Assembly: GCA_050015375.1 (NCBI GenBank)
Contig: JBEKBN010000006.1
Coordinates: 454-64,453, forward strand
Direction: 5' to 3'
DNA from: Minisyncoccia bacterium
GTDB taxonomy: Bacteria; Patescibacteriota; Minisyncoccia; 2-02-FULL-40-12; IGHO2-01-FULL-4-A
DNA length: 64,000 nucleotides
Shown here: in pieces, positions 1,701 through 59,956 of the stretch
Layout: every line of letters begins with the position of its first letter
How positions within the stretch are numbered: the first letter of the stretch is position 1
Program-made: the position numbers and the translations under genes
The notes under the pieces: model-generated
The model's database searches: none
What the model saw: only the letters and a program-made list of their open reading frames with translations
What the model was told of the DNA's origin: nothing

Positions 1701-2960
1701 ATGAACCGAATCTGGAAAGTTTTCAAGATAAAAGACCTTCGCAACAAGATATTTTTCATCTTGGCGCTTTTAGTCGTCTTCCGGGTGGCGGCGGCGATCC
1801 CGATCCCGGGCGTAGACGCCGTGGCTTTGAGGAATTTTTTCCAAAACAACCAGCTTTTCGGTTTGATCTCGAGTTTCACCGGCGGCGGTTTGAATAATTT
1901 TTCGGTGGTCATGCTCGGCCTCGGTCCTTACATCACCGCATCGATCATCATGCAATTATTGACCATGATCTTTCCGTCACTGGAGCAAATGTACAAATAT
2001 GAGGGCGAAGCCGGCCGCCAGAAATTCAATCAATACTCCCGCATTTTGACTGTGCCTTTGGCGATCGTTCAAGGTTACGCTTTCATCACTCTTTTTGCCC
2101 GCCAAGGCATCATCGGCAATTTGTCCCTGACCGCCTGGGCAAGTTCGCTCATCACTATTGCCGCCGGCTCGGTGTTTTTGATGTGGCTTGGCGAACTCAT
2201 CACCGAAAAAAATATTGGCAATGGCGTTTCACTTTTGATCTTTGCCGGCATTGTCGCCCGTTTCCCGACCGAACTTGGCCAAGCGCTGGCCACCCGGACC
2301 TCGGGCGATATCATCACCGGTATTGTTTTCATTTTGATCGCCTTGGTGGTCATTGCCGGTGTCGTTTATCTGACCGAAGCTCAGCGAAATATTCCCATCA
2401 ATTACGCTCGGCGGGTCCGCGGTTCGCGGGTCTATGGCGGCGTCTCGACCTATCTGCCGATGCGGGTCAATAACGCCGGCGTCATGCCGATAATCTTCGC
2501 TTTGTCTTTGCTTTTGTTTCCAAGTATGATCGCCACTTTTTTCAGCGCATCAAGAATCGCTTTCATCGCCTCGGCCGCCAAAGCCGTGGCGGCGTTCATC
2601 CAAAACCAAACCATCTATGCCGTTCTGTATTTCATTCTGGTCGTGGCTTTCACGTATTTTTACACGGCCGTTACTTTTGACCCGAAATCAATTTCCGAAA
2701 ATGTCCAAAAACAAGGCGGCTATGTTCCGGGCATCCGGCCGGGCGAGCAGACCGCTCAATTTCTGACCCATCTTTTGAATAGAGTTACTTTGGTCGGCGC
2801 GGTTTTTCTGGGGCTCATTGCCATTCTTCCTCAAATCGTTCGTGGCGTCACCGGTGTGACGGCCTTCACCGTTGGCGGCACTTCGGTGCTGATCGTAGTG
2901 TCGGTTGTTCTTGAAGTCATCAAGGCATTGGATGCTCAATTATCCATGTATGAGTACTAG
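1701..2960 (+). CDS. secY: preprotein translocase subunit SecY
   Basis: 419-aa polytopic membrane protein with SecY motifs (GLGPYITASIIMQLL, GGVSTYLPMRVN). Canonical position after rplO. Confidence 0.92.
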   Translation: MNRIWKVFKIKDLRNKIFFILALLVVFRVAAAIPIPGVDAVALRNFFQNNQLFGLISSFTGGGLNNFSVVMLGLGPYITASIIMQLLTMIFPSLEQMYKYEGEAGRQKFNQYSRILTVPLAIVQGYAFITLFARQGIIGNLSLTAWASSLITIAAGSVFLMWLGELITEKNIGNGVSLLIFAGIVARFPTELGQALATRTSGDIITGIVFILIALVVIAGVVYLTEAQRNIPINYARRVRGSRVYGGVSTYLPMRVNNAGVMPIIFALSLLLFPSMIATFFSASRIAFIASAAKAVAAFIQNQTIYAVLYFILVVAFTYFYTAVTFDPKSISENVQKQGGYVPGIRPGEQTAQFLTHLLNRVTLVGAVFLGLIAILPQIVRGVTGVTAFTVGGTSVLIVVSVVLEVIKALDAQLSMYEY

Positions 2961-2981
2961 CTTCTAGTTAAGGGGGAGGAT

Positions 2982-3269
2982 ATGGGCAGTGTTGCGGTTT
3001 TAGCGAAAATAGCGGTAGAAATCGAGCAAACGATAAAAAGCAAAGAGTCGTTTGAACAAATTTTCGGACCTGTTTTGGGAAGCGAGGAGATGATCGTCGT
3101 TGTTGGTCGGCAGGGATTGTTTGGAAGCGAACAGCTTACAAATGAAGAGATTGCTTGCGAACTCGGTCCGGGAAGACAGAGCACGGAAGTAATTCGTATT
3201 TATTTTGGTGCTCTTGAGAAAATCAAAGCGCATATGGCGTCAACTGGGCGAGTGAGGTTGTTAGAATAA
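2982..3269 (+). CDS. small protein with a sigma-70 region-4-like helix-turn-helix
   Basis: Strong SD AGGGGGAGG precedes the ATG. The C-terminus LTNEEIACELGPGRQSTEVIRIYFGALEKIK resembles the sigma-70 region 4 HTH. The location between secY and adk is unusual. Confidence 0.45.
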   Translation: MGSVAVLAKIAVEIEQTIKSKESFEQIFGPVLGSEEMIVVVGRQGLFGSEQLTNEEIACELGPGRQSTEVIRIYFGALEKIKAHMASTGRVRLLE

Positions 3270-12311: not shown

Positions 12312-12875
12312 ATGTCTTGGCAAATCTGTAAGCCGAATTCTGTTCCCCCACTTTTTGAGTTGCCCCAAAAGTGGGGGAGGCGATCATTTATCTGGTCCCT
12401 CGGTTACCCTCGGGATCTAGCGTCTCTTCCCCCACTTTTTAAGTTGCCCTAAAAGTGGGGGACACGGACTTGCACCGGGCAGGGTTTAGCGCGCATCCAT
12501 GTCGCCATGGAGCGGTCCCGTTCGGGGCCTTTTCACCCGTGATCCGCTTGCGCGGACTCGGAATAGTTTCTGTGCCACTTTCCCTGAATTTTGATAAATA
12601 ACTTTTGTCTTAAGAACAAAAACTATCCATCTTATATTCGGTGGCCATTAGCCACTGCCCTGCTTACGCAATCACCAACTGCTAATCTCTAATCTCAAAT
12701 AAAACCATTGGCGATCTTAGTTAACAATTAATGATTGCGTAAGCGGTGTTCGGACTTTCCTCCCTAAAACATTTTGCTTTCGCAAAATGTTCGGGCGATC
12801 AATTCGCAAAGCGAATTGATTTAGCCCCAAATCCAATAAGAATTCGTAGAGTAATCACCCGATTTACCAGGACTT
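12312..12875 (-). ncRNA. rnpB: RNase P RNA (bacterial type A-like) with an extended helix and twin hairpin insertions
   Basis: Reverse complement carries GGGAGGAAAGUCCGAAC (P4 5'), CAGGGCAG, AGUGGCACAGAAAC, CGCGCAAGCGGAUCACGGGUGAAAAGG, CUAAACCCUGCCCGGUGCAAG and ACAGAAUUCGGCUUACAG (J/P4 3'). These align with E. coli M1 RNA. The 5' and 3' ends are approximate. Confidence 0.8.
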
Positions 12876-17579: not shown

Positions 17580-19174
17580 CAGTCGGTTATTATTTTGTCG
17601 CCTTCCCGAACACCGCTAAGGATCTCCACTTTGCCATCGGAACCGTAAAGGCCGGTCTGGATCTGGACTTGAGTTGAGTGGACGCCGTCCGCCGAAAGCA
17701 ATTGGACATATTTATTCCCATTTTCACGGATGATCGTTCTTTGGGGCAAAAACAAAACATTTTGGCGGTTGTCGTTCGAGATATCAAGATTGGCGGTCAT
17801 GCCGGGTTTGATCCGGTCGTCGTTTTGGCTGAGAGTGAAAATAGTTTTGTATGTCGGCACGCCCTCGATAACCGATTCTGAAGGATAGATCTGAGAAACG
17901 ACAGCGTTCCAAGTCACATCCGGACCGTAGGCGTCGAGGGTAACCGTTGCCGGGTCGCCGACTTTGATCTTTGAAACATCAGCTTCTGGAACATTGGATT
18001 CGATCTGGTATTTGTTCATGCCGATGACAGAAACAACCGTGGCCTCGGGAGCAACAATCTCGCCGACCTGGAGATCGAAAGTAGCAATAGTGCCGGCAAT
18101 GGGCGAGCGCAAAGTATTCTTGTCGAGCTGGCTTTGGATCTGAGCCTGACTGGCTTGGGCCTGTGTCAAAGCCGCTTTGGCAATGTCGATGTCATATTGG
18201 GTCGGCGGAGCGATCTTCAAAGCCAGTTGCGACTCCAAGCTGGCGACATTATTTTGAGCGGTGATGATGGCTTGGCCTTGATCGGTAACAGCGGTGATTT
18301 GGGCTAGGACACCGGCTTTGGCCGAAACAATGACCGCTTTGTCAGCATCGGTTGCCGTGATGCCGTTTAAGCCAGTGTAGATATCATCGAGCGCGGTTTG
18401 GGTCAGGACCAAAACATTTTTTACATCCTTGATAAGCTGATTGCCATCCACCAGTGACGGATTAGTTTCATAACCGGAAATTTCAGCCACTAGCCCGCTT
18501 TGCAATACCAAGAATGCCGATGAGTTGTAGTTTCCCAAATTAGGTTTGTCATAAATAGCGAACAGAGCGTCGGCTTTATCGCCAATGATCTTTTGAAATT
18601 GGTCAAAATCAATGTTGGGATATTTTTGGGCGGAGTCGGAAACGGAAACCATTGCATTTATTGCCGTGTTCAAAGCTGTTTTTGCCACTGCCAGCGAGTC
18701 CTTGGTCAAGGTGTCGTTAAGAATGTTTTTAGCGCTGTCCAAACTTGTCTGCAAAACACTGACATCTTCCGGCCGCGGACCCTGGAGAAGCTGATCGTAT
18801 TTGGCCTGTGCCGACTGGACATTGGCCGTGGCGCCAAGAAGCTGGGCTTCCAGGTCGGACGAATCCAATTTGGCGAGAACTTGGCCGGCAGTGACTTTGT
18901 CGCCGACGGCGCCGGAGATGCTGACGACCTTTCCGCTGTGGTCGAACGACAAATTGACCTGGTCATTGGCGGAAATTTGGCCGGTCTCAGAAATAACCTG
19001 CTCAATATTTCCCTTTTGAACAGCGACGGTTTTCAGCGTTGACGGTTTAGCCCGGAACAAAAAAGCTCCGCCGGCCAAGACCAAAACGATAATTCCCGCC
19101 CAAACATATGTCCGGGGGCGTTTGAAAAAGGTCGGCTTCATAATCGGTTGATTTTCATCCATAATGTTATCCAT
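17579..19174 (-). CDS. HlyD-family periplasmic adaptor subunit (MacA-like)
   Basis: N-terminal TM, a long coiled-coil, and beta-barrel/MP domains. I placed the start at MDNIMDENQ (19174) rather than the track's 19207, which reads into the IR element. Confidence 0.75.
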   Translation of the reverse strand: MDNIMDENQPIMKPTFFKRPRTYVWAGIIVLVLAGGAFLFRAKPSTLKTVAVQKGNIEQVISETGQISANDQVNLSFDHSGKVVSISGAVGDKVTAGQVLAKLDSSDLEAQLLGATANVQSAQAKYDQLLQGPRPEDVSVLQTSLDSAKNILNDTLTKDSLAVAKTALNTAINAMVSVSDSAQKYPNIDFDQFQKIIGDKADALFAIYDKPNLGNYNSSAFLVLQSGLVAEISGYETNPSLVDGNQLIKDVKNVLVLTQTALDDIYTGLNGITATDADKAVIVSAKAGVLAQITAVTDQGQAIITAQNNVASLESQLALKIAPPTQYDIDIAKAALTQAQASQAQIQSQLDKNTLRSPIAGTIATFDLQVGEIVAPEATVVSVIGMNKYQIESNVPEADVSKIKVGDPATVTLDAYGPDVTWNAVVSQIYPSESVIEGVPTYKTIFTLSQNDDRIKPGMTANLDISNDNRQNVLFLPQRTIIRENGNKYVQLLSADGVHSTQVQIQTGLYGSDGKVEILSGVREGDKIITD

Positions 19175-19286
19175 CCCGTTAGAAGTCACTGTTGCACAGT
19201 TAATCACATAAGTTATAAAACCTGCTACAGAATGACTTTATAATTGATTCCAATTCGCGAACCCGTTAGGGTGACTTCTAACGGGA
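19174..19286. repeat. 113-bp inverted-repeat element (TCCCGTTAGAAGTCAC ... GTGACTTCTAACGGGA) abutting the macA start codon; copy A of three
   Basis: 16-bp perfect terminal IRs. The element ends exactly at the ATG of the downstream minus-strand gene. Related copies are at 52085-52197 and 58608-58685. Confidence 0.75.
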
Positions 19287-19334
19287 TCCATGATTTTGTC
19301 GTAATTCAGTAATTTTATTATAAATTATAAGAAA

Positions 19335-23630: not shown

Positions 23631-25460
23631 ATGCAAAACATCCGCAATTTTTGTATAATTGCTCACATAGACCATGGCAAAAGCACCTTAGCCGACCGGC
23701 TTTTAGAATTGACGGGCACAATTGAAAAGCGCAAAATGCACGAACAATTTCTGGACCAGATGGAATTGGAGCGTGAAAGAGGGATTACCATAAAACTCCA
23801 ACCCGTCCGCATGCAATACGGCGAATATATTTTGAATTTAATAGATACGCCGGGCCATGTGGATTTCACCTACGAAGTTTCTCGTTCGCTGGCGGCGGTG
23901 GAGGGTGCGATTTTACTTGTGGATGCCGCCAAAGGCGTTCAAGCCCAGACACTGGCCAATTTGCATTTGGCGCAAAGACAGAATTTGGTCATTATTCCGG
24001 TCATCAACAAAATTGATCTACCCAATGCCAGAGTGGCCGAAGCCGAAGAAGAAATTTCCAATTTGCTTGCCGTTGAACCGGACGAAATTATCAAGATTTC
24101 CGCCAAGACCGGTGAAGGCGTGGAGAAAGTTCTTGAAGCGGTTGTCGAAAAAATTCCCCCGCCATCTACTCACTACTCACTACCAACTACCAACTATCCT
24201 CGCGCCCTGATTTTTGATTCCGCTTTTGACGCTTACAAAGGCGTTGTCGCTTATGTCAGGATTTTTGACGGCAACTTCCGGGCCGGAGACAAAATTAAAC
24301 TTTTCGCTTCCAAAGCCGAAGCCGAGATAATCGAAGTTGGTCAGTTTAAACCCGCCTTGAGCAAAACCGATTCTATCGGCGAAGGTGAGATCGGCTATAT
24401 CGCCACCGGTTTGAAAAATCCCGGCGATGTCCGCGTTGGTGATACGGTTTTCTCTACAAACTATAAACCACAAACTACAAACTTTTCACCCCTTCCCGGC
24501 TACAAAGAACCGATGCCGGTGGTTTTCGCCAGTTTTTTTCCGGAAAAAGGGGAAGATTATGATCTGCTGAAAGACGCGCTGGGAAAACTGAAATTGACCG
24601 ATGCCTCGCTGACTTATGAACCGGAATCTTCACCAGCCCTCGGCCGGGGTTTTCGCCTTGGCTTTCTGGGTATGCTCCACACCGAGATCATCAGTGAGCG
24701 GTTGCGCCGGGAATTCAAATTGTCGCTGATAATTTCCTCGCCGTCGGTGGAATATCACATTTTGAAAAAGAACGGCCAAGAAATTCCCATCCGTTCGGCA
24801 TCAGAGATGCCCAATCCGAGTTATATTGATAAAATTTTCGAACCGACGGTTGTGCTGGAATTGTTGAGCCCATCTGAATATCTCGGTTCATTGATGAAAC
24901 TTCTTTCCGAAATGCGAAGCTCTTATCTAGCCACTGATTATTTGACCAAGGAAATCGTGATTTTAAAATACAAAGTCCCGCTGACTGAAATTGTGACCGA
25001 TTTTTATGACAAACTGAAAAGCGTCAGTTCCGGTTACGCTTCGATGAGTTATTCACCCCCACACTCATTAGATGAGTGTGGGGGCAAGCAGGATGGCTAT
25101 GAGGAATCTGATCTGGTTCGGCTGGATATTTTGGTGGCCGGGGATTTGGTTGAACCGTTTTCGAGAATGGTTCCGAGATCGCGCGTTCATGACGAAGGCA
25201 AGAGAATTGTCGAGAAGTTGAAGAAAATAATTCCGCGGCAATGGTTCGCGGTGGCGATCCAAGCGGCCATCGGCGGGAAAATAATCGCTCGGGAAACCAT
25301 CAGCGCTTTGCGAAAAGATGTTACCGGTTATCTCTACGGCGGGGATATTACCCGCAAGAAAAAATTATTGGAGAAGCAAAAGAGGGGGAAGGCGAGGATG
25401 AAAGAGGAAGGCAAGGTGAATATTCCGCAGAATGTGTTTCTGGAGATGCTGAAAAAGTAG
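23631..25460 (+). CDS. lepA: elongation factor 4 (LepA)
   Basis: IRNFCIIAHIDHGKSTLADRLL...DTPGHVDF and a C-terminus matching E. coli LepA. Contains three in-frame repeat insertions. Confidence 0.92.
   Translation: MQNIRNFCIIAHIDHGKSTLADRLLELTGTIEKRKMHEQFLDQMELERERGITIKLQPVRMQYGEYILNLIDTPGHVDFTYEVSRSLAAVEGAILLVDAAKGVQAQTLANLHLAQRQNLVIIPVINKIDLPNARVAEAEEEISNLLAVEPDEIIKISAKTGEGVEKVLEAVVEKIPPPSTHYSLPTTNYPRALIFDSAFDAYKGVVAYVRIFDGNFRAGDKIKLFASKAEAEIIEVGQFKPALSKTDSIGEGEIGYIATGLKNPGDVRVGDTVFSTNYKPQTTNFSPLPGYKEPMPVVFASFFPEKGEDYDLLKDALGKLKLTDASLTYEPESSPALGRGFRLGFLGMLHTEIISERLRREFKLSLIISSPSVEYHILKKNGQEIPIRSASEMPNPSYIDKIFEPTVVLELLSPSEYLGSLMKLLSEMRSSYLATDYLTKEIVILKYKVPLTEIVTDFYDKLKSVSSGYASMSYSPPHSLDECGGKQDGYEESDLVRLDILVAGDLVEPFSRMVPRSRVHDEGKRIVEKLKKIIPRQWFAVAIQAAIGGKIIARETISALRKDVTGYLYGGDITRKKKLLEKQKRGKARMKEEGKVNIPQNVFLEMLKK
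24166..24200. repeat. heptamer tract (CTACTCA x2, CTACCAA x2, CTATCCT) in frame inside lepA, encoding STHYSLPTTNYP
   Basis: Five 7-nt units with a CTA anchor. Absent from E. coli LepA at the equivalent PAPQGDPDAPLQ position. Confidence 0.65.
24454..24488. repeat. heptamer tract (CTACAAA/CTATAAA/CCACAAA/CTACAAA) in frame inside lepA, encoding TNYKPQTTNF
   Basis: Same unit as the tpiA tract. About 7 extra residues relative to E. coli LepA. Confidence 0.65.
25056..25084. repeat. palindromic element CCCCCACACTCA-TTAGA-TGAGTGTGGGGG (copy 2) inserted in frame in lepA, encoding SPPHSLDECGG
   Basis: Perfect 12-bp arms with a 5-nt loop. Adds about 11 residues relative to E. coli LepA between GYAS and SDLV. 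Confidence 0.75.
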
Positions 25461-31473: not shown

Positions 31474-31517
31474 ATAACATGTAGATATTGACCATATGGT
31501 CAATATCTACATGTTAT
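31474..31517. promoter_or_regulatory. 44-bp perfect palindrome (ATAACATGTAGATATTGACCAT|ATGGTCAATATCTACATGTTAT), putative operator
   Basis: Perfect dyad 30 bp upstream of the PaaX-like gene, in a divergent region shared with arsR. A near-copy is at 32111-32138. Confidence 0.6.
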
Positions 31518-31546: not shown

Positions 31547-32113
31547 ATGAAGGCGATAAGAAGAGGAACCCTAGCTTTTAAAATTTTAAAAGGCATTGGT
31601 CTAACGGGTTTGTTTTTAATAAGCATGTCGAACCCGCGTTTTGGGGTTCAGTTATTGACGGGATTTAAAGAATATAACAAAAGGGAGAAACAAAAATTCA
31701 GAGAATCGTTATATTATTTGAAAAAAAGAGGATTGGTAAAAATCATAGAAAACAGTAGCGGCGGCTTTACGGCCAAATTGTCAAAGACCGGAGAAAAAAT
31801 GTTGGAATCTATCGACATTGATTGTCTTGAATTGAAAAATAAGGAATTTGATGGAAAATGGCGCGTGGTTATCTTTGATGTTCCGGTCAGATTGAATATT
31901 AAAAGACACGCTTTTACGGAACGACTGAAAACTCTGGGTTTTATCATGGTTCAAAGAAGTGTATGGATTTGTCCGTTTAGGTGCAGAAAAGAACTGGCGA
32001 TGTTAACCCAATTTTACGAAATTGAGAAATACGTCACATATTTAGAAACATCTTTTGTGGATAACGAAGAAGCGTGGAAAAAAGAGTTTTCACTAATCAA
32101 ACTGGTGGCTTAG
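31547..32113 (+). CDS. PaaX-like regulator: N-terminal winged helix plus a C-terminal Cas2-fold domain
   Basis: SLYYLKKRGLVKIIE (wHTH), then GKWRVVIFDVPVRLNIKRHAFTERLKTLGFIMVQRSVWICPF, which resembles the Cas2/PaaX_C motif (YDV..KRR...L...G.R.Q.SV). Confidence 0.5.
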   Translation: MKAIRRGTLAFKILKGIGLTGLFLISMSNPRFGVQLLTGFKEYNKREKQKFRESLYYLKKRGLVKIIENSSGGFTAKLSKTGEKMLESIDIDCLELKNKEFDGKWRVVIFDVPVRLNIKRHAFTERLKTLGFIMVQRSVWICPFRCRKELAMLTQFYEIEKYVTYLETSFVDNEEAWKKEFSLIKLVA

Positions 32114-32138
32114 ATATTCACCATATGGTCAATATCTA
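32111..32138. promoter_or_regulatory. imperfect 28-bp palindrome (TAGATATTCACCAT|ATGGTCAATATCTA), second copy of the operator-like dyad
   Basis: One central mismatch relative to the 31474 dyad. Overlaps the stop codon of the PaaX-like gene. Confidence 0.5.
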
Positions 32139-32217
32139 CACTTGGGGGTGTTGATATTGTGAGCGGATGACATAACCATGTTTCTATAAAAAGAAACACG
32201 GTTTTATTTTCCACAAG

Positions 32218-46264: not shown

Positions 46265-46392
46265 TCGGCGGGATTTTTTCTTTTCTTTTTTTCCAATTTT
46301 GATATAATAAAATCAATGCAAGAACTGCGAGAAATGATCGAAGAAATGCAGTTGAAAGTCCCTGTTCACCCCTCACCCAGAAAGCTAAAATT

Positions 46393-46647
46393 ATGTTCTG
46401 CGTTTATTTAATTAAAAGTTTAAAAGATGGCTCGATCTATATCGGATACACGCCTAATTTAAAAAGGAGGTTAGCAGAACATAATTCAAATCAAAGTGTG
46501 TATACAAAAAATAAAGGACCATACGAACCGATTTATTGCGAGTTTTACAAATCGAAACAGGATGCAATAAATCGAGAACAAAATTTGAAAAGATTTGCGC
46601 AAGCATATTCGCAGTTGAAAAAAAGAATTACTTTTTCTCTGGAGTAG
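46393..46647 (+). CDS. GIY-YIG nuclease-domain protein (UPF0213/Slx1-like)
   Basis: VYLIKSLKDGSIYIGYTPNLKRRLAEHN...REQNLKR is the GIY-YIG motif set. Confidence 0.7.
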   Translation: MFCVYLIKSLKDGSIYIGYTPNLKRRLAEHNSNQSVYTKNKGPYEPIYCEFYKSKQDAINREQNLKRFAQAYSQLKKRITFSLE

Positions 46648-46683
46648 CTTTCTGGGTGAGGGGCAAGTCCGGGAGTTTAACAT

Positions 46684-47758
46684 ATGACTACTTTGCGTGA
46701 AGAATTGAATAGTATGCAAGATAAGTGCCGTGCCGTGCGGCACCGTCTTTGACCTAGGCGAATCGCGAGAAAAAATCAAGCAAATTGAAACCGAAATGCA
46801 AGCGCCCGGTTTTTGGAATAACAACGAAAAAGCCGGTAAAGCGTCAAAAGAATTAAATGATCTAAAAACCGAAGTCGAATTCTGGGAAACAACGATGCTG
46901 GAACTGGACGAATTCGGAAAGATGTCCGACGAGGAAATTCAGAAAAAAGAAATCGAAATCCGAGCTTTCAAAAAGAATTTCGACAAAGAATACATAAAAA
47001 TATTTTTGTCAGGAAAATACGACAAAGGCAATGCCCTTTTGTATGTCTATTCCGGCGCCGGCGGCGTGGACGCCCAGGATTGGGCTTCAATGCTTTTGCG
47101 GATGTATCAGAAATACGCCGAGCGCGAGGGTTATGGCTGGACGCTTTTGCAACAGTCCTTTGGCGAGCAGAACGGCACCAAAAGCGCCGTCGCCGAGATC
47201 ACCGGCCGCTGGGCTTACGGAAAATTGCGGGGCGAGGCCGGTGTTCATCGTTTGGTCAGGATTTCACCCTTCTCGGCCAAGTCGTTGCGCCACACATCGT
47301 TCGCTCTCGTGGACGTGCTTCCCGAGATTGAAGATGTTAAAATTAATATTGACCCGAAAGATCTGCGAATTGATACTTTTCGGTCATCGGGACCGGGCGG
47401 ACAGAATGTCAACAAACTGGAAACGGCCGTCAGGATCACCCATATTCCGACGAATCTGACCGTTGCCGTCCAATCGGAGCGTTCTCAAGCCCAGAACAAA
47501 GCCAAAGCCATGACGCTCTTGCAATCCCGTCTGGCGCAATTGATGGAAGAGAAAAAAATTCAGGAAATTTCCGAGCTTCGGCTTGACACCAAAGACAGCG
47601 CCATTGAATGGGGTAGTCAGATCCGTTCCTATGTCATTCATCCTTACAAGATGGTCAAAGACCACCGGACCGAGGTTGAGACGACGCAGGTTGACAAGGT
47701 TCTGGAAGGGGAGTTGGATGAATTCATAGAAAAAGAGTTGGTGGTTGGTAGGTCGTAG
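46684..47758 (+). CDS. prfB: peptide chain release factor 2, with a programmed +1 frameshift: join(46684..46749,46751..47758)
   Basis: Frame 0 reads MTTLREELNSMQDKCRAVRHRL then CTT TGA C (46747-46753). The +1 frame continues DLGESREKIKQ...SGPGGQNVNK...GSQIRSYV. Confidence 0.88.
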
Positions 47759-51569: not shown

Positions 51570-52085
51570 TTAAGAATCCTTCGAGATCAAGCTGGCCGTG
51601 AAATATCCGACGATGATCCCGATAAGCGCGCCGCCGAGAATATCAGAAGGATAATGGACGCCGGCCATGACTCTGGCGACGCCCATCACGATACTGCCAA
51701 CAAAGAACGCCGTTCCCCAGCGTTTGTTGTAATAAAATATTATCATTGAAAGCGCGAAGAAGAAACTGGCGTGGCCGGAGGGAAAAGAATTGCCGCTCTC
51801 GGAGACGAGCTGGTGAACCTGATAAATAGCGAATGGCCGGGGATGATGGTAAAAATATCGGATGACCGTGGTCAAAATCCCGCGGGAAATGAAAACCGAA
51901 ATAATTCCGGCCCAAAAAACTTTCCAGCGAGTCGCCAAGAAAGGTTTCAACCATAAAAAGACCAAAAATAAAATTCCCAAAAGATACGCCCAGTAGATGG
52001 CGAAAAAAACCGTGAGCCAACTCAAAAAACCCGGCGAGCCGACGAGATCGTTCAAAGCAAAAAATATTTTTGTATCCAGATTCAT
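51570..52085 (-). CDS. PAP2-family phosphatase (undecaprenyl-diphosphatase-like)
   Basis: PAP2 motifs PSGHASFFFAL and GVHYPSDILGGALIG. I placed the start at MNLDTKIFF (52085), not the track's 52118, which reads into the IR element. Confidence 0.75.
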   Translation of the reverse strand: MNLDTKIFFALNDLVGSPGFLSWLTVFFAIYWAYLLGILFLVFLWLKPFLATRWKVFWAGIISVFISRGILTTVIRYFYHHPRPFAIYQVHQLVSESGNSFPSGHASFFFALSMIIFYYNKRWGTAFFVGSIVMGVARVMAGVHYPSDILGGALIGIIVGYFTASLISKDS

Positions 52086-52197
52086 CCCGTTAGAAGTCAC
52101 TGTTTCACAGCTAATCACCTAATTTATACAACTAACGACAGCTGACTTAATTAAAGTATCTATGGTTGCAAACCCGCTAGGGTGACTTCTAACGGGA
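52085..52197. repeat. 113-bp inverted-repeat element, copy B (TCCCGTTAGAAGTCAC ... GTGACTTCTAACGGGA), abutting the PAP2 start codon
   Basis: Same length and terminal 16-bp IRs as copy A. About 40 bp at each end are conserved and the centre is divergent. Confidence 0.75.
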
Positions 52198-52207
52198 TTC
52201 ATTTTAT

Positions 52208-52663
52208 TTAACGGTTTTCGGCCTTGCTGGCGTAATAGTTCTCGATCAAGCCGGTGATGATTATCGCCAGAATTATCACGCCGACCACGAGCATGAAAAT
52301 ATCAAAAGTGTCGGGAAAAGCATAAACGCATAGGCGATTCAACGTCGTGCAGTTAAGCAAAAGTCCGATCTCATCGGCGAACAAACCGATGCCGGCGCCG
52401 ATAAAAATACTGGCCACCTCCAGCGGTCGTTTGTCCCGGCTAAGCACGCCCAGCACTCCACCGACGGAAAGAAAAAGCATACCGTAGAAAAAATGGTGGA
52501 TATGAAAGCCGTGAATATATATCACGCGGGTGACATACAAGGAATATAACCTTGCTCCAACAAAAAAGATCAAGAACGAAACCAGGATAACATTCAAAAG
52601 CCGTTTTTTTTCGTCCTTAAAATTGAAGATCCATCTGAAGGACCTGATGACCAAATTGGACAT
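52208..52663 (-). CDS. hypothetical membrane protein
   Basis: Four TM helices. No motif. Confidence 0.45.
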   Translation of the reverse strand: MSNLVIRSFRWIFNFKDEKKRLLNVILVSFLIFFVGARLYSLYVTRVIYIHGFHIHHFFYGMLFLSVGGVLGVLSRDKRPLEVASIFIGAGIGLFADEIGLLLNCTTLNRLCVYAFPDTFDIFMLVVGVIILAIIITGLIENYYASKAENR

Positions 52664-55256: not shown

Positions 55257-56543
55257 ATGACCGTTTCTGATATAATTAAACAAATGGAGGAAAAAGAAAA
55301 TGAATTGAAATTCCCCAACGGGTTTTTGTGGGGGACGGCCACGTCAAGCTATCAGATAGAAGGTGGAATAAATAATTGCGACTGGGCCCAAGCGAATCGC
55401 GGTCCCTCGACAAGTTCAGGACATCAGATTCCTGATGCTGGGCGCGCTTGCGATAGTTACAATAAATACGAGGAGGATTTTGATATTGCCAAATCGCTTG
55501 GCCAGAACGCCCACCGTTTCTCTATAGAATGGGCGCGGATCGAGCCGGAAGAGGGAAAATTCGACGAGAAAGAAATCGAGCATTATAAAAAAGTGCTGGA
55601 CGCCTTGCGAACTCGCCCCCACACTCAAGATTTGAGTGTGGGGGGAACGGGATTGGAACCATTCGTGACCCTTTGGCATTTCACGCTTCCGGTTTGGTTC
55701 GCGAAAATGGGCGGTTTCGAAAATCCGAAATCACCGGAAATATTTTCCCGATATTGCGAATTTGTCGTTGGCAAAATGGGGGATAGAGTTCACCCTGTTA
55801 AATCCGGCGAAGCCGGTGCCGCGGAGCGGCAATTTAACAGGGTAAAATTCTGGGTAACTATAAACGAACCGATGGTTTATGCCTCGAATGGTTACCGAAA
55901 AGGTCAATGGCCGCCGTTTGAAAAAAATATTTTCAGGTTCATGAAGGTTATCAAAAATCTAATCATGTCGCACAATCTAGCATATGACAAAATCAAGAAC
56001 ATTGATCCTTCGGCTCAGATCGGCATCGCTAAAAATAATATAAATTTTGAGGCAAATTGGAACCCAATCAATCGCCTCTTGTCAAGCTTTCTGAATTTTT
56101 TCTGGAATCGCAGATTTTTGAATAAAATTTCACAGGATTTCATCGGTTTGAATTATTATTTCCACAAAAAGTTCGGGGATAGGGCGAAGTATCCGAAATC
56201 CGACATGGGTTGGGATATTTATCCGAAAGGAATTTATAATTTGCTGATGGAACTGAAAAAATATGGTAAACCGGTTTACATCACCGAAAACGGATTGGCG
56301 GACAAAGAAGACAAACAACGCGCCGATTTCATCCGTGAACATTTGAAATGGGTTTCGAGAGCGATCCGGGATGGCTCTGACTGCCGCGGATATTTTTATT
56401 GGTCGCTTCTGGATAATTTTGAGTGGGCGGAGGGTTACAAACAAAAATTCGGTTTGGTGGAAATTAATTTTGAAACAATGGAAAGAAAGATCAGGAATTC
56501 AGCGTGGGAATTTGCAAAAATTTGTAAAAATAACGAAATATGA
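55257..56543 (+). CDS. glycoside hydrolase family 1 (beta-glucosidase-like) carrying two in-frame palindromic insertions
   Basis: FLWGTATSSYQIEGG, TINEP (acid/base) and ITENGLA (nucleophile). Carries insertions RTRPHTQDLSVGG and HPVKSGEAGAAERQFNRV relative to canonical GH1. Confidence 0.88.
   Translation: MTVSDIIKQMEEKENELKFPNGFLWGTATSSYQIEGGINNCDWAQANRGPSTSSGHQIPDAGRACDSYNKYEEDFDIAKSLGQNAHRFSIEWARIEPEEGKFDEKEIEHYKKVLDALRTRPHTQDLSVGGTGLEPFVTLWHFTLPVWFAKMGGFENPKSPEIFSRYCEFVVGKMGDRVHPVKSGEAGAAERQFNRVKFWVTINEPMVYASNGYRKGQWPPFEKNIFRFMKVIKNLIMSHNLAYDKIKNIDPSAQIGIAKNNINFEANWNPINRLLSSFLNFFWNRRFLNKISQDFIGLNYYFHKKFGDRAKYPKSDMGWDIYPKGIYNLLMELKKYGKPVYITENGLADKEDKQRADFIREHLKWVSRAIRDGSDCRGYFYWSLLDNFEWAEGYKQKFGLVEINFETMERKIRNSAWEFAKICKNNEI
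55616..55644. repeat. palindromic element CCCCCACACTCA-AGATT-TGAGTGTGGGGG (copy 3), in frame in GH1
   Basis: Perfect 12-bp arms. Encodes RPHTQDLSVGG, inserted before the conserved GxEPFVTLxHxxLP block. Confidence 0.75.
55793..55842. repeat. second, distinct GC-rich palindromic insertion (CCCTGTTAAAT-28 nt-ATTTAACAGGG), in frame in GH1
   Basis: 11-bp perfect arms. The loop itself holds two hairpins (CCGGC-GAA-GCCGG and GCCGC-GGA-GCGGC). Encodes about 16 extra residues between GDRV and KFWVTINEP. Confidence 0.65.
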
Positions 56544-57427: not shown

Positions 57428-58509
57428 AGAAGCACAAAAAATATTTTTCAATTCCCATTATCCTTTTCTTGATCCTTTTGGTTTTAACCTTGGCTTGGAA
57501 TTTGCTTTCCATCAGGCCGGTTCCCGAAAAAGTAAATTACGGCGTTTCGTTCAGCGTTTTTCATTCCAACGAACTCAATCTGGATTGGAAAAAAACATAT
57601 TTGGCGATCTTAGACGATCTTAAGGTCAGGAACTTGCGGCTTACCGCTCATTGGCCGCTGACCGAGCCGGCCGACGGCAAATACGATTTCTCAGAATTGG
57701 ATTTTCAGATAAACGAAGCCGATAAACGCGGCGCGACCTATATTCTGGCCGTCGGCCGGCGCCTGCCCGGCTGGCCGGAATGCCATGTGCCGGATTGGGT
57801 TATGAATCAAGAATCACAAATCACGAATCAAGGTGAAAAAACTGATTTTGAGAACCAAAAGTTATTGGAATATATTCAGACGACCGTTGAGCGTTACAAA
57901 AATTCCCCCGGTCTGAAATATTGGCAAGTCGAGAATGAACCGTTCCTAGGATTTTTCGGCCGTTCGAGCTGCCAATTGACCGACGAGAATTTTTTCAAAC
58001 AGGAGATCGCTCTTGTCCATAAACTCGATCCGACCCATCCGGTTCTGGCGACCGACAGCGGCGAGTTCGGCTATTGGTATCAGGCCTACCGCGACGGTGA
58101 TGTTTTCGGCACCTCCTTGTATCTGTATGTTTGGTGGCGGGCGCTTGGCATCGGCCCCTTGCGTTATCCCATCGGGCCGTCGTTTTTCCGAGTGAAGCAA
58201 AATGTGGTTGATTTTATCGGTTGTGTCTTGGGCGATTCACCCTCACACTCAATTTTTGAGTGTGAGGGCAAGCCGACAATTCTCATTGAACTGGAAGCCG
58301 AGCCCTGGCTTTTAACACCGATCGTTGACGCGCCGATGGCGACTCTCCTTGACCGGATGGGGATTGATAAATTCGAAACCATGATCCAAACCGCCAAAGA
58401 AGCCGGTTTTGGCGACCAATATCTCTGGGGCGCCGAGTGGTGGTATTGGATGGAACAAAATGGCCATCCGGAATTTTGGCAGGCGGCGAAGCAACTTTTT
58501 AACCAATAA
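57424..58509 (+). CDS. glycoside hydrolase, clan GH-A (GH5/GH113-like)
   Basis: Signal/TM N-terminus, then YWQVENEPF (acid/base NEP) and LIELEAEPW (nucleophile Glu). The family is not resolved. Confidence 0.55.
   Translation: MKKHKKYFSIPIILFLILLVLTLAWNLLSIRPVPEKVNYGVSFSVFHSNELNLDWKKTYLAILDDLKVRNLRLTAHWPLTEPADGKYDFSELDFQINEADKRGATYILAVGRRLPGWPECHVPDWVMNQESQITNQGEKTDFENQKLLEYIQTTVERYKNSPGLKYWQVENEPFLGFFGRSSCQLTDENFFKQEIALVHKLDPTHPVLATDSGEFGYWYQAYRDGDVFGTSLYLYVWWRALGIGPLRYPIGPSFFRVKQNVVDFIGCVLGDSPSHSIFECEGKPTILIELEAEPWLLTPIVDAPMATLLDRMGIDKFETMIQTAKEAGFGDQYLWGAEWWYWMEQNGHPEFWQAAKQLFNQ
58240..58268. repeat. palindromic element variant CCCTCACACTCA-ATTTT-TGAGTGTGAGGG (copy 4), in frame in the GH-A hydrolase gene
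   Basis: Both arms carry a compensatory change (C to T paired with G to A), so pairing is preserved. Encodes SPSHSIFECEGKP. Confidence 0.75.
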
Positions 58510-58607
58510 TCCGTAATGTATATTAGGGGTCTTTAAACTTGCAAAAACATTTAAATATTTTCCGCTAAAGGTAGATTTGCCCGCGGCGGAAAAAATATAA
58601 ACATGAA

Positions 58608-58685
58608 TCCCGTTAGAGAGCGTGATTTAATTCAACATTTTAGACCGGTTGAATTACACGATTTTAACGGGACTCTCTAACGGGA
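58608..58685. repeat. 78-bp inverted-repeat element, copy C (TCCCGTTAGAGAG ... CTCTCTAACGGGA), abutting the htrA ATG
   Basis: 13-bp terminal IRs related to copies A and B, with an internal TTTTAACGGG half-site. Ends ...TCTAACGGG ATG. Confidence 0.7.
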
Positions 58686-59956
58686 TGAATAAAAAAGAAA
58701 TTTCCAGGTTTTTCAGAAGACATTTTATGCTGACCACGATCGTGGCTTGTCTGATCGTCTCGGCACTGGCCGGCGGAATCGTCGGCTATTACAGCGTCGA
58801 GGGCGCGCTTGGCCAGAAACCGGCTTTGCCGAATTTTGTCAAGCAACTGATCAATCCTCAAGCCGGCAATTCAACACCCGCTTTTACCAACGAACAATCT
58901 CAGGTCATCAGCGTCGTCAAAAGCGCCTCACCGGCGGTGGTCAGTATCGTGGCTTCAAAAGATCTGACCACGGTTGAGCAGAACGGCTACAATCCGTTCC
59001 AGGATTTTTGCAGCGATCCGTTCTTCAAACAATTTTTCGGCGACCAGTGCGATTCGGCAACGCCGGCGCCGAAATCCACGACCCAGAAACAACAAGTCGC
59101 GGCCGGCACCGGATTTTTGATAACTTCCGACGGTTTGATCCTGACCAACAAGCATGTCGTTGACATTTCGGGCGCCGATTTCACGGCCATCACCAGCGAC
59201 GGCAAAAGTTATCCGGCCAAGATCTTGGCCACCGATCCGGTTTTGGATGTGGCCTTGGTCAAAATTTCCGGGACTAATTTCCCAACCTTGCCTTTGGCCG
59301 ATTCGAGCCAAATTCAGATCGGTCAGACGGTCATCGCCATCGGCAACGCTTTGGGCCAATTCTCGAACACGGTTTCAAAAGGCGTAATTTCCGGCCTTTC
59401 CCGTTCGATTACCGCCGGAGACAATGCCGGTTCTTCGGAAACGCTAAACTCCGTTATCCAAACCGATGCCGCCATCAACCCGGGTAATTCCGGCGGACCG
59501 CTTTTGGATCTGAGCGGCAATGTCATTGGCATCAACACCGCCATTGCCCAAGGCGCCCAAAATATCGGTTTTGCCATTCCTATCAATCAAGCCAAAAAGG
59601 ATATCGGCCAGGTTAAAACCAGTGGCAAGATCAGCACCGCATACCTTGGCATTCGCTACATCGCCATTGACGACACGGTCAAACAGGAAAATAATCTGAC
59701 GGTGAATTACGGCGCGCTGGTAGTCAGAGGCGACACTCAGGATCAGGTGGCGGTCATGCCCGGCTCGCCGGCCGATATCGCCGGCATCAAAGAGAACGAC
59801 ATTATTCTCGAGGTTAACGGAACCAAAATAGACCAGAACAACGACCTGGCGACATTGCTTCAAAAATACAATGTCGGCCAAACGATCCAGCTGAAAGTTT
59901 TAAGCCAAGGAAAAGAAAAAACCGTTTCGGTGAAACTGGTGGAGAGACCTCAATGA
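58685..59956 (+). CDS. htrA: HtrA/DegP-family serine protease with a PDZ domain
   Basis: Trypsin-like core (TNKHVV...D...GNSGGPLLDLSGNVIGINTA) plus a C-terminal PDZ. I placed the start at the ATG at 58685, not the track's 58649, which is inside the IR element. Confidence 0.85.
   Translation: MNKKEISRFFRRHFMLTTIVACLIVSALAGGIVGYYSVEGALGQKPALPNFVKQLINPQAGNSTPAFTNEQSQVISVVKSASPAVVSIVASKDLTTVEQNGYNPFQDFCSDPFFKQFFGDQCDSATPAPKSTTQKQQVAAGTGFLITSDGLILTNKHVVDISGADFTAITSDGKSYPAKILATDPVLDVALVKISGTNFPTLPLADSSQIQIGQTVIAIGNALGQFSNTVSKGVISGLSRSITAGDNAGSSETLNSVIQTDAAINPGNSGGPLLDLSGNVIGINTAIAQGAQNIGFAIPINQAKKDIGQVKTSGKISTAYLGIRYIAIDDTVKQENNLTVNYGALVVRGDTQDQVAVMPGSPADIAGIKENDIILEVNGTKIDQNNDLATLLQKYNVGQTIQLKVLSQGKEKTVSVKLVERPQ

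Follow-up and report, generated by a model that had tools for sequence, protein, structure and literature searches.

A probable non-autonomous mobile element at the start codon of a PAP2 phosphatase gene, and its family in Patescibacteria

Here we characterise a 113-bp inverted-repeat element, copy B, that adjoins the start of a PAP2 phosphatase gene in a bacterium of the Minisyncoccia, a class of Patescibacteria (Candidate Phyla Radiation, CPR), and relate it to a family of elements from many lineages of these bacteria. The window analysed is a stretch of 64,000 nucleotides from contig JBEKBN010000006.1 (assembly GCA_050015375.1, positions 454 to 64,453); positions are counted from its first letter unless a fetched locus is named. 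The PAP2 gene (51570..52085, minus strand; 171 aa; PF01569, 78 bits) is the host gene whose start codon has been struck, and copy B lies immediately upstream of it at 52085..52197 on the same strand. Copy B reads T-CCCGTTAGAAG...CTTCTAACGGG-A, contains no nuclease gene and has the anatomy of a non-autonomous element resembling a MITE (a miniature transposable element bounded by inverted repeats), with termini common to 137 elements elsewhere. Its perfect 16-bp terminal inverted repeats, located by 15-mer search and repeat alignment, lie at 52182..52197 (gene-distal) and 52085..52100 (gene-proximal), the outermost base of the latter, 52085, being the A of the PAP2 ATG. On either side stands a 4-bp target duplication, TGAA in gene sense (ttca on the plus strand), at 52198..52201 upstream and 52081..52084 downstream. 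The upstream TGAA together with the A at 52202 forms a relic of the original start codon (ATG 52202-52200, minus strand), while the terminal A of copy B together with the downstream TGAA forms the rebuilt PAP2 start (ATG 52085-52083, minus strand). In gene sense the locus thus runs ...TAA ATAAA A-TGAA-[T CCCG...CGGG A]-TGAA-TCTGGAT..., and the ends of the element in their target context are TGAA + TCCCGTTAGAAGTCAC...GTGACTTCTAACGGGA + TGAA. Upstream, a gene for a protein of 151 aa with no Pfam match (52208..52663, minus strand) ends in a TAA 5 nt before the relic ATG, so that PAP2 would have followed it almost directly before the insertion.

Reading the sequence from the relic ATG, we found a remnant frame of 27 codons (52119..52202, minus strand; relic ATG, MNPVRSHPSGFATIDTLIKSAVVSCIN, TAG), which stops 33 nt upstream of the PAP2 ATG and whose first seven codons, M-N-P-V-R-S-H, are those of the nuclease open reading frame (ORF) of the full-length elements described below. 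Copy B has no other ORF. This is in line with the original prediction that conservation lies on the paired ends and not on any coding content. The same prediction had named a true PAP2 start at 52118, with a conserved N-terminal peptide, as what would refute it; homologues do not bear out such a start, which would be at a GTG. The 11 residues that such a start would add, MISCETVTSNG, occur in 0 of 50 PAP2 homologues, all of which start M-x-[LI]-D-x-x-[LIF]-F in alignment with MNLDTKIFF at the ATG abutting copy B. Public gene calls likewise place the PAP2 start at ATG 52085, and the GTG-extended product of 182 aa is not on record in a public protein look-up. By the criterion of the original prediction, copy B is not coding sequence of PAP2.

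Two further copies are present in the window. The 15-mer CCCGTTAGAAGTCAC occurs there at exactly four sites, 19175-19189(+), 19271-19285(-), 52086-52100(+) and 52182-52196(-), which are both ends of copy A and both ends of copy B; dinucleotide shuffles gave 0.81 matches at up to 3 mismatches, and five matches were reached in 0 of 100 shuffles. A weak match at 62892 (3 mismatches) was dismissed as chance, as it lies within an ORF-rich stretch and has no partner end. Extended by the flanking T/A pair, copies A and B are each 113 bp long with a perfect 16-bp terminal inverted repeat, as had been predicted. Aligned without gaps they are identical at 83 of 113 positions, and the predicted pattern of about 40 conserved bp at each end around a divergent centre also held (31/40 in the first 40 nt, 16/33 in the central 33, 36/40 in the last 40); BLAST of one against the other returned 44 nt at 91% and 27 nt at 96%. 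The reported fusion of the right end to the PAP2 ATG is correct in gene orientation and corresponds to the low-coordinate end, 52085, on the plus strand. The 4-bp duplications that flank the copies were absent from the original prediction. Copy A (19174..19286, minus strand) sits on the start codon of a gene that encodes a membrane-fusion protein of 531 aa (HlyD/RND adaptor-like), between duplications of TGGA in gene sense (tcca on the plus strand; 19170-19173 and 19287-19290), giving A-TGGA-[T...A]-TGGA-TAAC. Copy C, a 78-bp relative with a 13-bp perfect repeat (58608..58685, plus strand), sits at the start codon of an HtrA-like protease gene between TGAA duplications (58604-58607 and 58686-58689), giving A-TGAA-[T...A]-TGAA-TAAA. 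It shares only the outer 10-11 nt with copies A and B, and its relic-ATG frame ends at a TAA within the right repeat, 4 nt before the rebuilt ATG.

To place these copies in a wider context, public genomes (one per species) were scanned with the 15-mer and the matching loci fetched. Besides chance matches the scan returned dozens of Patescibacteria loci, nearly all of which read ATGAAT, CCCGTTAGAAGTCAC, 60-130 nt, CTTCTAACGGG and ATGAA. They come from Saccharibacteria, Paceibacterota, Nomura-, Zambryski-, Yanofsky-, Kaiser-, Kerfeld-, Jorgensen- and Vogelbacteria, with a few bins labelled otherwise; in viral contigs, the same search gave 13 matches, all of them lone chance matches with no second end. 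Over all fetched loci, the termini YCCCGTTAGA...TCTAACGGGR delimit, by our count, 137 distinct elements, of which nearly all come from Patescibacteria. The family termini can be written 5'-Y CCCGTTAGA(A/G)... ...TCTAACGGG R-3', the outermost pair being T..A or C..G, and the elements come in two sizes: minis without a gene, about 40-130 bp long (68 distinct ones in other genomes, besides the three copies in the window), and units of about 280 bp that hold solely a 93-aa GIY-YIG ORF.

A 4-bp duplication flanks 85 of the 137 elements, most commonly TGAA (42), followed by TAAA (10), TGAG (7), TGGA (5) and TATG (5), with TTTA and TTGA also present. The upstream flank co-varies with the second codon of the host gene (ATGCAAT/ATGCAAA, ATGCGT/ATGCGC, ATGGAAT/ATGGAAC), which identifies the repeat as duplicated target lying outside the element and rules out the alternative that ATGAAT is part of it. 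Of 65 candidates in a first tally, partly overlapping the 137, 40 had T..A and 18 had C..G as their outermost pair, and the triplet that came next was ATG for 37 and GTG for 8; ATG succeeds T..A elements and GTG succeeds C..G elements. The terminal purine and the duplicated TG therefore rebuild a start codon. Tandem arrangements were seen in one of the fetched loci, L022, where a full-length nuclease unit comes directly after a mini at one start codon (100-442) and three left ends in a row precede one right end (1581-2021). Such a pile-up is expected if each insertion recreates its own target. At five loci (L130, L099, L066, L173 and L180) the duplicated sequence is the TTGA of a TTGAC(A) with a -10-like box downstream, and promoter -35 boxes may be a secondary landing site.

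The full-length units, the longer coding parents of the family, comprise three loci (L006, L110, L022) and 80 metagenome loci (L119-L198) from a protein-alignment scan. Between these same ends, L006 and L110 contain 280 bp, beginning ATG AAC and then CCC GTT AGA AGT CAC TGG TGG TAT GTT TAT... (M-N-P-V-R-S-H-W-W-Y-V-Y-V-L...) and closing ...CAT GAC TTC TAA CGGG before GTG AAC. The ORF encodes a single-domain GIY-YIG protein of 93 aa (PF01541, 63.6 bits, with an overlapping weak T5orf172 match); one such full-length nuclease, P0001, starts MNPVRSHWWYVYVL... A protein search returned 956 homologues, most of them 93 aa long with a start M[NSD]PVRS[QH] and an end FFFA[HY]DF, which means that both terminal repeats are translated; others are 86 aa and start MWYVYVL from an ATG of their own. 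In all 80 metagenome loci, found by protein similarity alone, the nuclease gene is bounded by the same termini. Repeat halves bound 72 of 72 oriented full-length copies, a figure that is partly by construction, the termini having been searched for 250-330 bp apart. Resemblance of copy B to these units is confined to the outer 15 nt or so, and MITEs usually resemble their full-length parents only at the ends.

No start codon lies within the element in 34 of 66 oriented full-length copies, and in 25 of those 34 a start stands exactly 6 nt before the core, that is, at the ATG of the host. An RTG follows the element in 24 of the 34 copies without a start of their own and in 6 of the 32 that have one (Fisher p = 2.6e-5). 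At the other end, 54 of 66 copies have their frame closed by the TAA in the TTC TAA CGGG of the right repeat, which leaves 4 nt to the base that rebuilds the host start, and 9 of 66 by a TGA 11 nt before the end of the element; in L022 the nuclease stop is the TGA of an ATGA overlap with the host start. A stop so close to the rebuilt host start indicates that element and host gene are arranged for coupled translation. In about 1.2 Mb of fetched loci we found no unit of 330-4000 bp with these termini, and hence no other enzyme gene that travels with them. One apparent pair in this size range, in L124, proved to consist of separate hairpins of 28-41 nt (CCCGTTAGAG...CTCTAACGGG) that lie within a type I methyltransferase (HsdM-like) ORF (2484-3116), and the family may thus persist within coding sequence too. 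A tblastn search of plasmids with the nuclease gave no match. The nearest solved proteins by sequence and fold are the UPF0213 protein BH0048 (1zg2, E = 1.2e-6) and Slx1 (7cq2, E = 7e-4), with I-TevI far below them in the structure search (E = 0.6). The AlphaFold model of the nuclease has a pLDDT of 80.8, and the match of the protein to TIGR01453 reached 28 bits at a cut-off of 56.

Insertion of the minis is strongly concentrated on start codons. An ORF of at least 50 aa begins from the rebuilt ATG or GTG directly after the element in 40 of the 68 minis. For comparison, we assumed a generous model in which only insertions at harmless sites survive: the window holds 1346 TGRA sites, 170 of them fully intergenic and at most 27 at gene starts, which caps the expected share of insertions at starts at 13.7%. 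Against this window-derived bound, both the minis elsewhere (40/68, p ~5e-18) and the copies in the window (3/3, p <=0.0026) are enriched. In a subfamily with unequal ends, the GTCAC end lies upstream in 19 of 19 independent insertions (counted by eye; two-sided p = 4e-6), which suggests either directional insertion or strong selection on orientation. The host genes of the minis include those for ribosomal proteins L31 and S2, topoisomerase I (TopA), TsaD, CTP synthase and glutamyl-tRNA synthetase (GluRS), and their products match Pfam profiles from the first residues that follow the rebuilt ATG; in L31, with a mini at residue 1, residues 1-63 are covered by profile positions 1-63. Since the profiles of the hosts start at the rebuilt ATG, the insert is compatible with expression of essential genes.

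Taken together, copy B is most probably a miniature, non-autonomous representative of a family of tiny mobile elements that extends across the Patescibacteria. It is short, lacks coding capacity and carries terminal inverted repeats, and it has a fixed-length duplication, dispersed copies and a longer coding parent, the set of features by which a MITE is recognised. Under this reading, insertion would duplicate 4 bp of target, most often TGAA or more generally TGRA, and mostly the TGRA of a host ATGRA start. The terminal R plus TG rebuilds ATG (T..A elements) or GTG (C..G elements) after the element and leaves the host ORF complete to its first residue, while the original ATG, together with the host promoter and ribosome-loading region, stays at the upstream end. 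In autonomous copies this captured ATG would become the start of the nuclease (ATG AAY CCC GTT AGA AGT, M-N-P-V-R-S), whose ORF would then end at the right-repeat TAA (TTC TAA CGGG RTG), 4 nt before the rebuilt host start. As the enzyme moving the elements we propose the GIY-YIG protein itself, which probably recognises the hairpin formed by both ends in single-stranded DNA (ssDNA) and cuts at its base, in the manner of the Ssn nucleases. Copy B would be mobile only given a cognate nuclease elsewhere in this genome. As for PAP2, translation may begin directly at the rebuilt AUG. Alternatively, ribosomes that come from the upstream gene, or that load at the old site, may read the remnant frame into the 5' arm and, by melting the stem, expose the PAP2 AUG.

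Several observations weigh against this interpretation. No empty site or insertion polymorphism was found for any copy in the window, and the predicted 32-nt empty site of copy B, with the junction CCGTTAAATAAAATGAATCTGGATAC, is absent from the metagenome collection. The collections hold no close relative of this genome, the nearest PAP2 homologue being 56% identical, and the few other assemblies returned by look-ups of the three host proteins show the same upstream gene spacing and so evidently carry the element. A cognate nuclease with matching ends was not found in the window, where the sole GIY-YIG gene (46393-46647) is associated with different 18-bp repeats. The duplication is 3, 5 or 6 bp long in about 15 elements and missing in about 34, for which decay, nesting or our own boundary calls account. 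The minis show no coupling signature (core length modulo 3 = 15/15/10), and their remnant frames mostly stop internally. Post-insertion selection alone could explain part of the enrichment at start codons. Finally, GIY-YIG enzymes are, to our knowledge, hydrolytic nucleases; we know of none that performs strand transfer, and the origin of the 4-bp duplication is left unexplained.

The strongest competing explanation draws on the Ssn nucleases of Proteobacteria. An Ssn is a single-domain GIY-YIG protein of about 94 aa that binds the NTS/SRM hairpin in ssDNA and cuts beside it; its gene is typically flanked by NTS/SRM repeats, an architecture that its authors state "is identical to" that of insertion sequences (Chenal et al. 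2025, Nat Commun, PMC11893778). For the NTS repeats of Neisseria, a role in taking up or recombining incoming DNA has been proposed. By analogy, the hairpins described here would not be mobile, or no longer so, and would serve as sites for a host-kept, ssDNA-specific GIY-YIG nuclease that modulates DNA uptake or recombination, with copy B marking the PAP2 locus. The likeness is considerable: both systems have a single-domain GIY-YIG gene of about 90 aa bounded on both sides by inverted hairpin repeats, which also occur solo, in large numbers, around the genome. Patescibacteria are, moreover, symbionts, a lifestyle for which SRM expansions have been reported (PMC11893778). We retrieved Ssn-type proteins with a consensus that served solely as bait; behind the gene of one such protein, P0251, stand five canonical NTS copies. 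In hhalign the CPR profile matched that of the NTS-flanked Ssn-type proteins with a probability of 97% (E = 1e-10, 35% identity over 65 columns), in keeping with remote homology. In BLASTP, the CPR nuclease was 34% identical to P0251, which here stands in for SsnA, over 65 aa (70% cover; pairwise E 1e-9), short of the criterion for the family, a cd10448 clade for which E < 1e-10 against N. meningitidis SsnA is required, with a cover of 75% or more (PMC11893778). The CPR nuclease is thus a homologue of the Ssn-type proteins, though probably on a separate branch, and the CPR elements are remote relatives of the Ssn/SRM units with the same architecture, not demonstrably members of that family. 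They would operate in the manner of an Ssn/SRM pair, the nuclease being predicted to cut ssDNA alone, next to its hairpin, as Ssn does.

Several differences separate the two systems. Among the CPR elements, a unit that shows a 4-bp target duplication has the repeat halves as its outermost parts, the ORF is frequently without a start of its own and takes a captured host ATG, and insertions concentrate on start codons. The published SRM motif, HGTCWYN(0-2)YYVSBRHN(0-5)WNVSBRGN(0-2)RNCYNB (PMC11893778), matched 0 of 144 elements and nothing anywhere in the window, while the same expression finds the NTS consensus and the five NTS copies beside P0251. A domesticated repeat would also leave the arrival of the copies unexplained: unrelated targets are duplicated over precisely 4 bp, elements are stacked in tandem at a single start codon (L022) and nuclease ORFs rely on a captured host ATG, all of which signals insertion. 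We consider a purely domesticated origin unlikely, and it and the mobile-element interpretation are not mutually exclusive. As an aside, in a proteobacterial type I restriction operon (L199-L201, ~1810-2130) an Ssn-type GIY-YIG gene starts on the stop of hsdM (TGATG) and is followed by five canonical NTS repeats before hsdS.

The original prediction leaned towards a structured 5'-UTR (untranslated region) element kept by selection on pairing, which would make copy B a cis-regulatory leader RNA: a stem in the mRNA, acting as a thermosensor, a riboswitch-like device or a protein-binding operator, would control PAP2 translation. A strong structure is indeed predicted. The two 16-nt arms of copy B can pair into a stem of 17 bp, with the A of the PAP2 AUG as its final paired base, and across the copies a terminal stem of 16-17 bp folds more stably in gene sense than shuffled sequence (z = -5.0 for B, -4.3 for A, -7.0 for C). 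Copy B lies between the stop of the upstream gene and the PAP2 start, where it is almost certainly transcribed, likely as part of the PAP2 leader, and an internal CTAGCGGG, read from the sequence, can pair with the 5' arm in a possible alternative fold. On the antisense strand, however, copy B also folds (z = -3.9), and no significant preference for the sense strand emerged (Wilcoxon p = 0.21; G-U pairs 111 vs 84). At gathering thresholds, Rfam returned only RNase P and three tRNAs in the whole window and no family for the element. The downstream genes are moreover unrelated (PAP2, efflux adaptor, HtrA, L31, S2, TopA, GluRS, CTP synthase), and the element has target duplications and coding parents. 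Selection on pairing in a 5' UTR is not the best explanation because the same termini, with 4-bp duplications, precede dozens of unrelated genes in many Patescibacteria lineages, and because they bound a GIY-YIG nuclease gene in the full-length members; the paired ends are better understood as terminal inverted repeats that belong to a family of mobile elements. Any effect on regulation would more likely follow from the insertion than be the reason for it. A dedicated leader RNA is therefore improbable, and we are fairly confident that the feature is instead a non-autonomous mobile element.

Much the same signature, terminal inverted repeats with a short fixed-length duplication, is classic for insertion sequences of the DDE type, and copy B could in principle be an ordinary MITE of such an element, with the transposase gene elsewhere and the GIY-YIG gene as mere cargo; the lack of strand transfer among known GIY-YIG enzymes would favour this. 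Yet the ~280-bp GIY-YIG units are the only longer units with these termini in the ~1.2 Mb of fetched loci, and the nuclease ORF fills the whole unit, its first and last codons being the terminal repeats, unlike cargo genes in transposons. We regard this origin as very improbable. Translational bypass or excision at the RNA level, suggested by the identical codons that flank the hairpin, was rejected because insertions inside ORFs are rare and a rebuilt start would be needless.

Resting the case on a non-autonomous mobile element, it is useful to compare the family with other small elements. The Correia elements of Neisseria, thought to derive from DDE-type insertion sequences, resemble the copy B family in size (~100-150 bp), terminal inverted repeats, a short duplication and many dispersed copies; they are co-transcribed with their neighbours and able to form long stems in mRNA. 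Correia elements duplicate TA and occupy varied intergenic positions, whereas the present family duplicates 4 bp, has a GIY-YIG gene as its sole coding relative and sits on the start codon itself, which the terminal purine rebuilds. The REP/BIME palindromes and their RAYT nucleases (IS200/IS605-like, Y1) share with the CPR units a small nuclease gene between two inverted palindromic repeats and solo palindromes genome-wide, and recognition of ssDNA hairpins is likely their mode of action. They differ in the fold of the enzyme (HUH/Y1 there, GIY-YIG here), and REPs, which leave their target unduplicated, are mostly found behind genes and not on start codons; with its GIY-YIG enzyme, terminal inverted repeats and duplications, the present family falls outside the IS200/IS605-REP/RAYT group. 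Homing endonuclease genes of the GIY-YIG type (I-TevI, Seg) are likewise selfish elements whose sole product is a GIY-YIG nuclease. Homing enzymes have a DNA-binding domain and at least 200 aa, act on one conserved site, depend on break repair and lack terminal repeats and target duplications. In contrast, the CPR protein has 93 aa and one domain, its genes have terminal repeats and target duplications, and its hosts are dozens of unrelated genes, which sets it apart from that class.

Further features of the window are recorded here in their own right. The sole GIY-YIG gene mentioned above belongs to a second, different unit (46369-46663, plus strand), whose ORF of 84 aa (46393-46647) is 39% identical to the CPR nuclease and which has a perfect inverted repeat of 18 bp, CCCCTCACCCAGAAAGCT, on either side (46369-46386 and 46646-46663). 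The ORF starts from an ATG of its own, 7 nt inside the left repeat, and closes with a TAG that overlaps the right one; the window has no other copy of CCCCTCACCCAGAAAGCT. This unit stands just upstream of the gene for release factor 2 (46684-47758, plus strand), in which a short frame from ATG 46684 ends at the TGA of a CTT TGA C site near 46747-46753 and the long ORF continues in the +1 frame, so that the gene appears to be split by a classic +1 frameshift site. Another hairpin family, CCCCCACACTCA-loop-TGAGTGTGGGGG, has three copies, at 25053-25087, 55613-55647 and 58237-58271, which are 83% identical to the reference copy; one of them precedes copy C by ~340 nt, and the family may represent a terminator or a further mobile hairpin. 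The stretch 31474-31517 is a perfect palindrome of 44 nt, ATAACATGTAGATATTGACCAT/ATGGTCAATATCTACATGTTAT, with a near-identical copy of 30 nt at 32111-32140, ~630 nt away. The RNase P RNA match (12313-12810, minus strand) spans 498 nt against a model of 367 positions. Within it, at 12339-12378 and 12423-12462, lie two hairpin repeats of 40 nt that are nearly identical, a hint that the RNA gene carries an insertion.

Considered more broadly, this kind of element is already known in two guises, the MITE and the GIY-YIG nuclease accompanied by hairpin repeats. The variant seen here appears to be undescribed, namely an element made up of a nuclease ORF without a start, enclosed by two repeats, that lands on start codons and rebuilds them: a full-text literature search returned no description of these termini or of GIY-YIG elements at Patescibacteria start codons, and the paper on the Ssn nucleases, searched by word, contains none of "target site", "duplication", "start codon" or "Patescibacteria" (PMC11893778). 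We put forward, with somewhat less than even confidence, the idea that the ~280-bp units form a new class of prokaryotic transposable element, in which a minimal Ssn-like GIY-YIG transposase acts on a hairpin of the two ends, that copy B and its relatives are their MITEs, and that the Ssn/SRM repeats of Proteobacteria are relatives or domesticated descendants. Such a lifestyle could be termed start-codon parasitism. The element would bring no promoter, no ribosome-binding site and often no start codon, taking all of these from the host gene, while the host would receive a new start through the terminal purine and have its ribosomes passed on through the stop codon at the right end.

In conclusion, these findings have consequences both for mobile elements and for the genomes that carry them. 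The catalogued bacterial insertion sequences that we know of use DDE, DEDD, HUH, serine or tyrosine enzymes only. If a GIY-YIG nuclease of 93 aa indeed moves this family, it would represent a new type of transposase enzyme and about the smallest autonomous DNA element known. Our data also bear on the open question of whether the nuclease-plus-hairpin units of the Ssn type are mobile, as the units described here show target duplications and captured start codons. For annotation, hundreds of CPR genes, including those for ribosomal proteins and tRNA synthetases, carry an insert of 40-280 bp exactly at the start codon, and gene callers may extend ORFs into the element, as in the 182-aa PAP2 ORF of the window, or annotate fusions of nuclease and host. 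That essential genes tolerate a 17-bp stem ending in the AUG raises the question of how translation is initiated in bacteria with weak use of the Shine-Dalgarno sequence.

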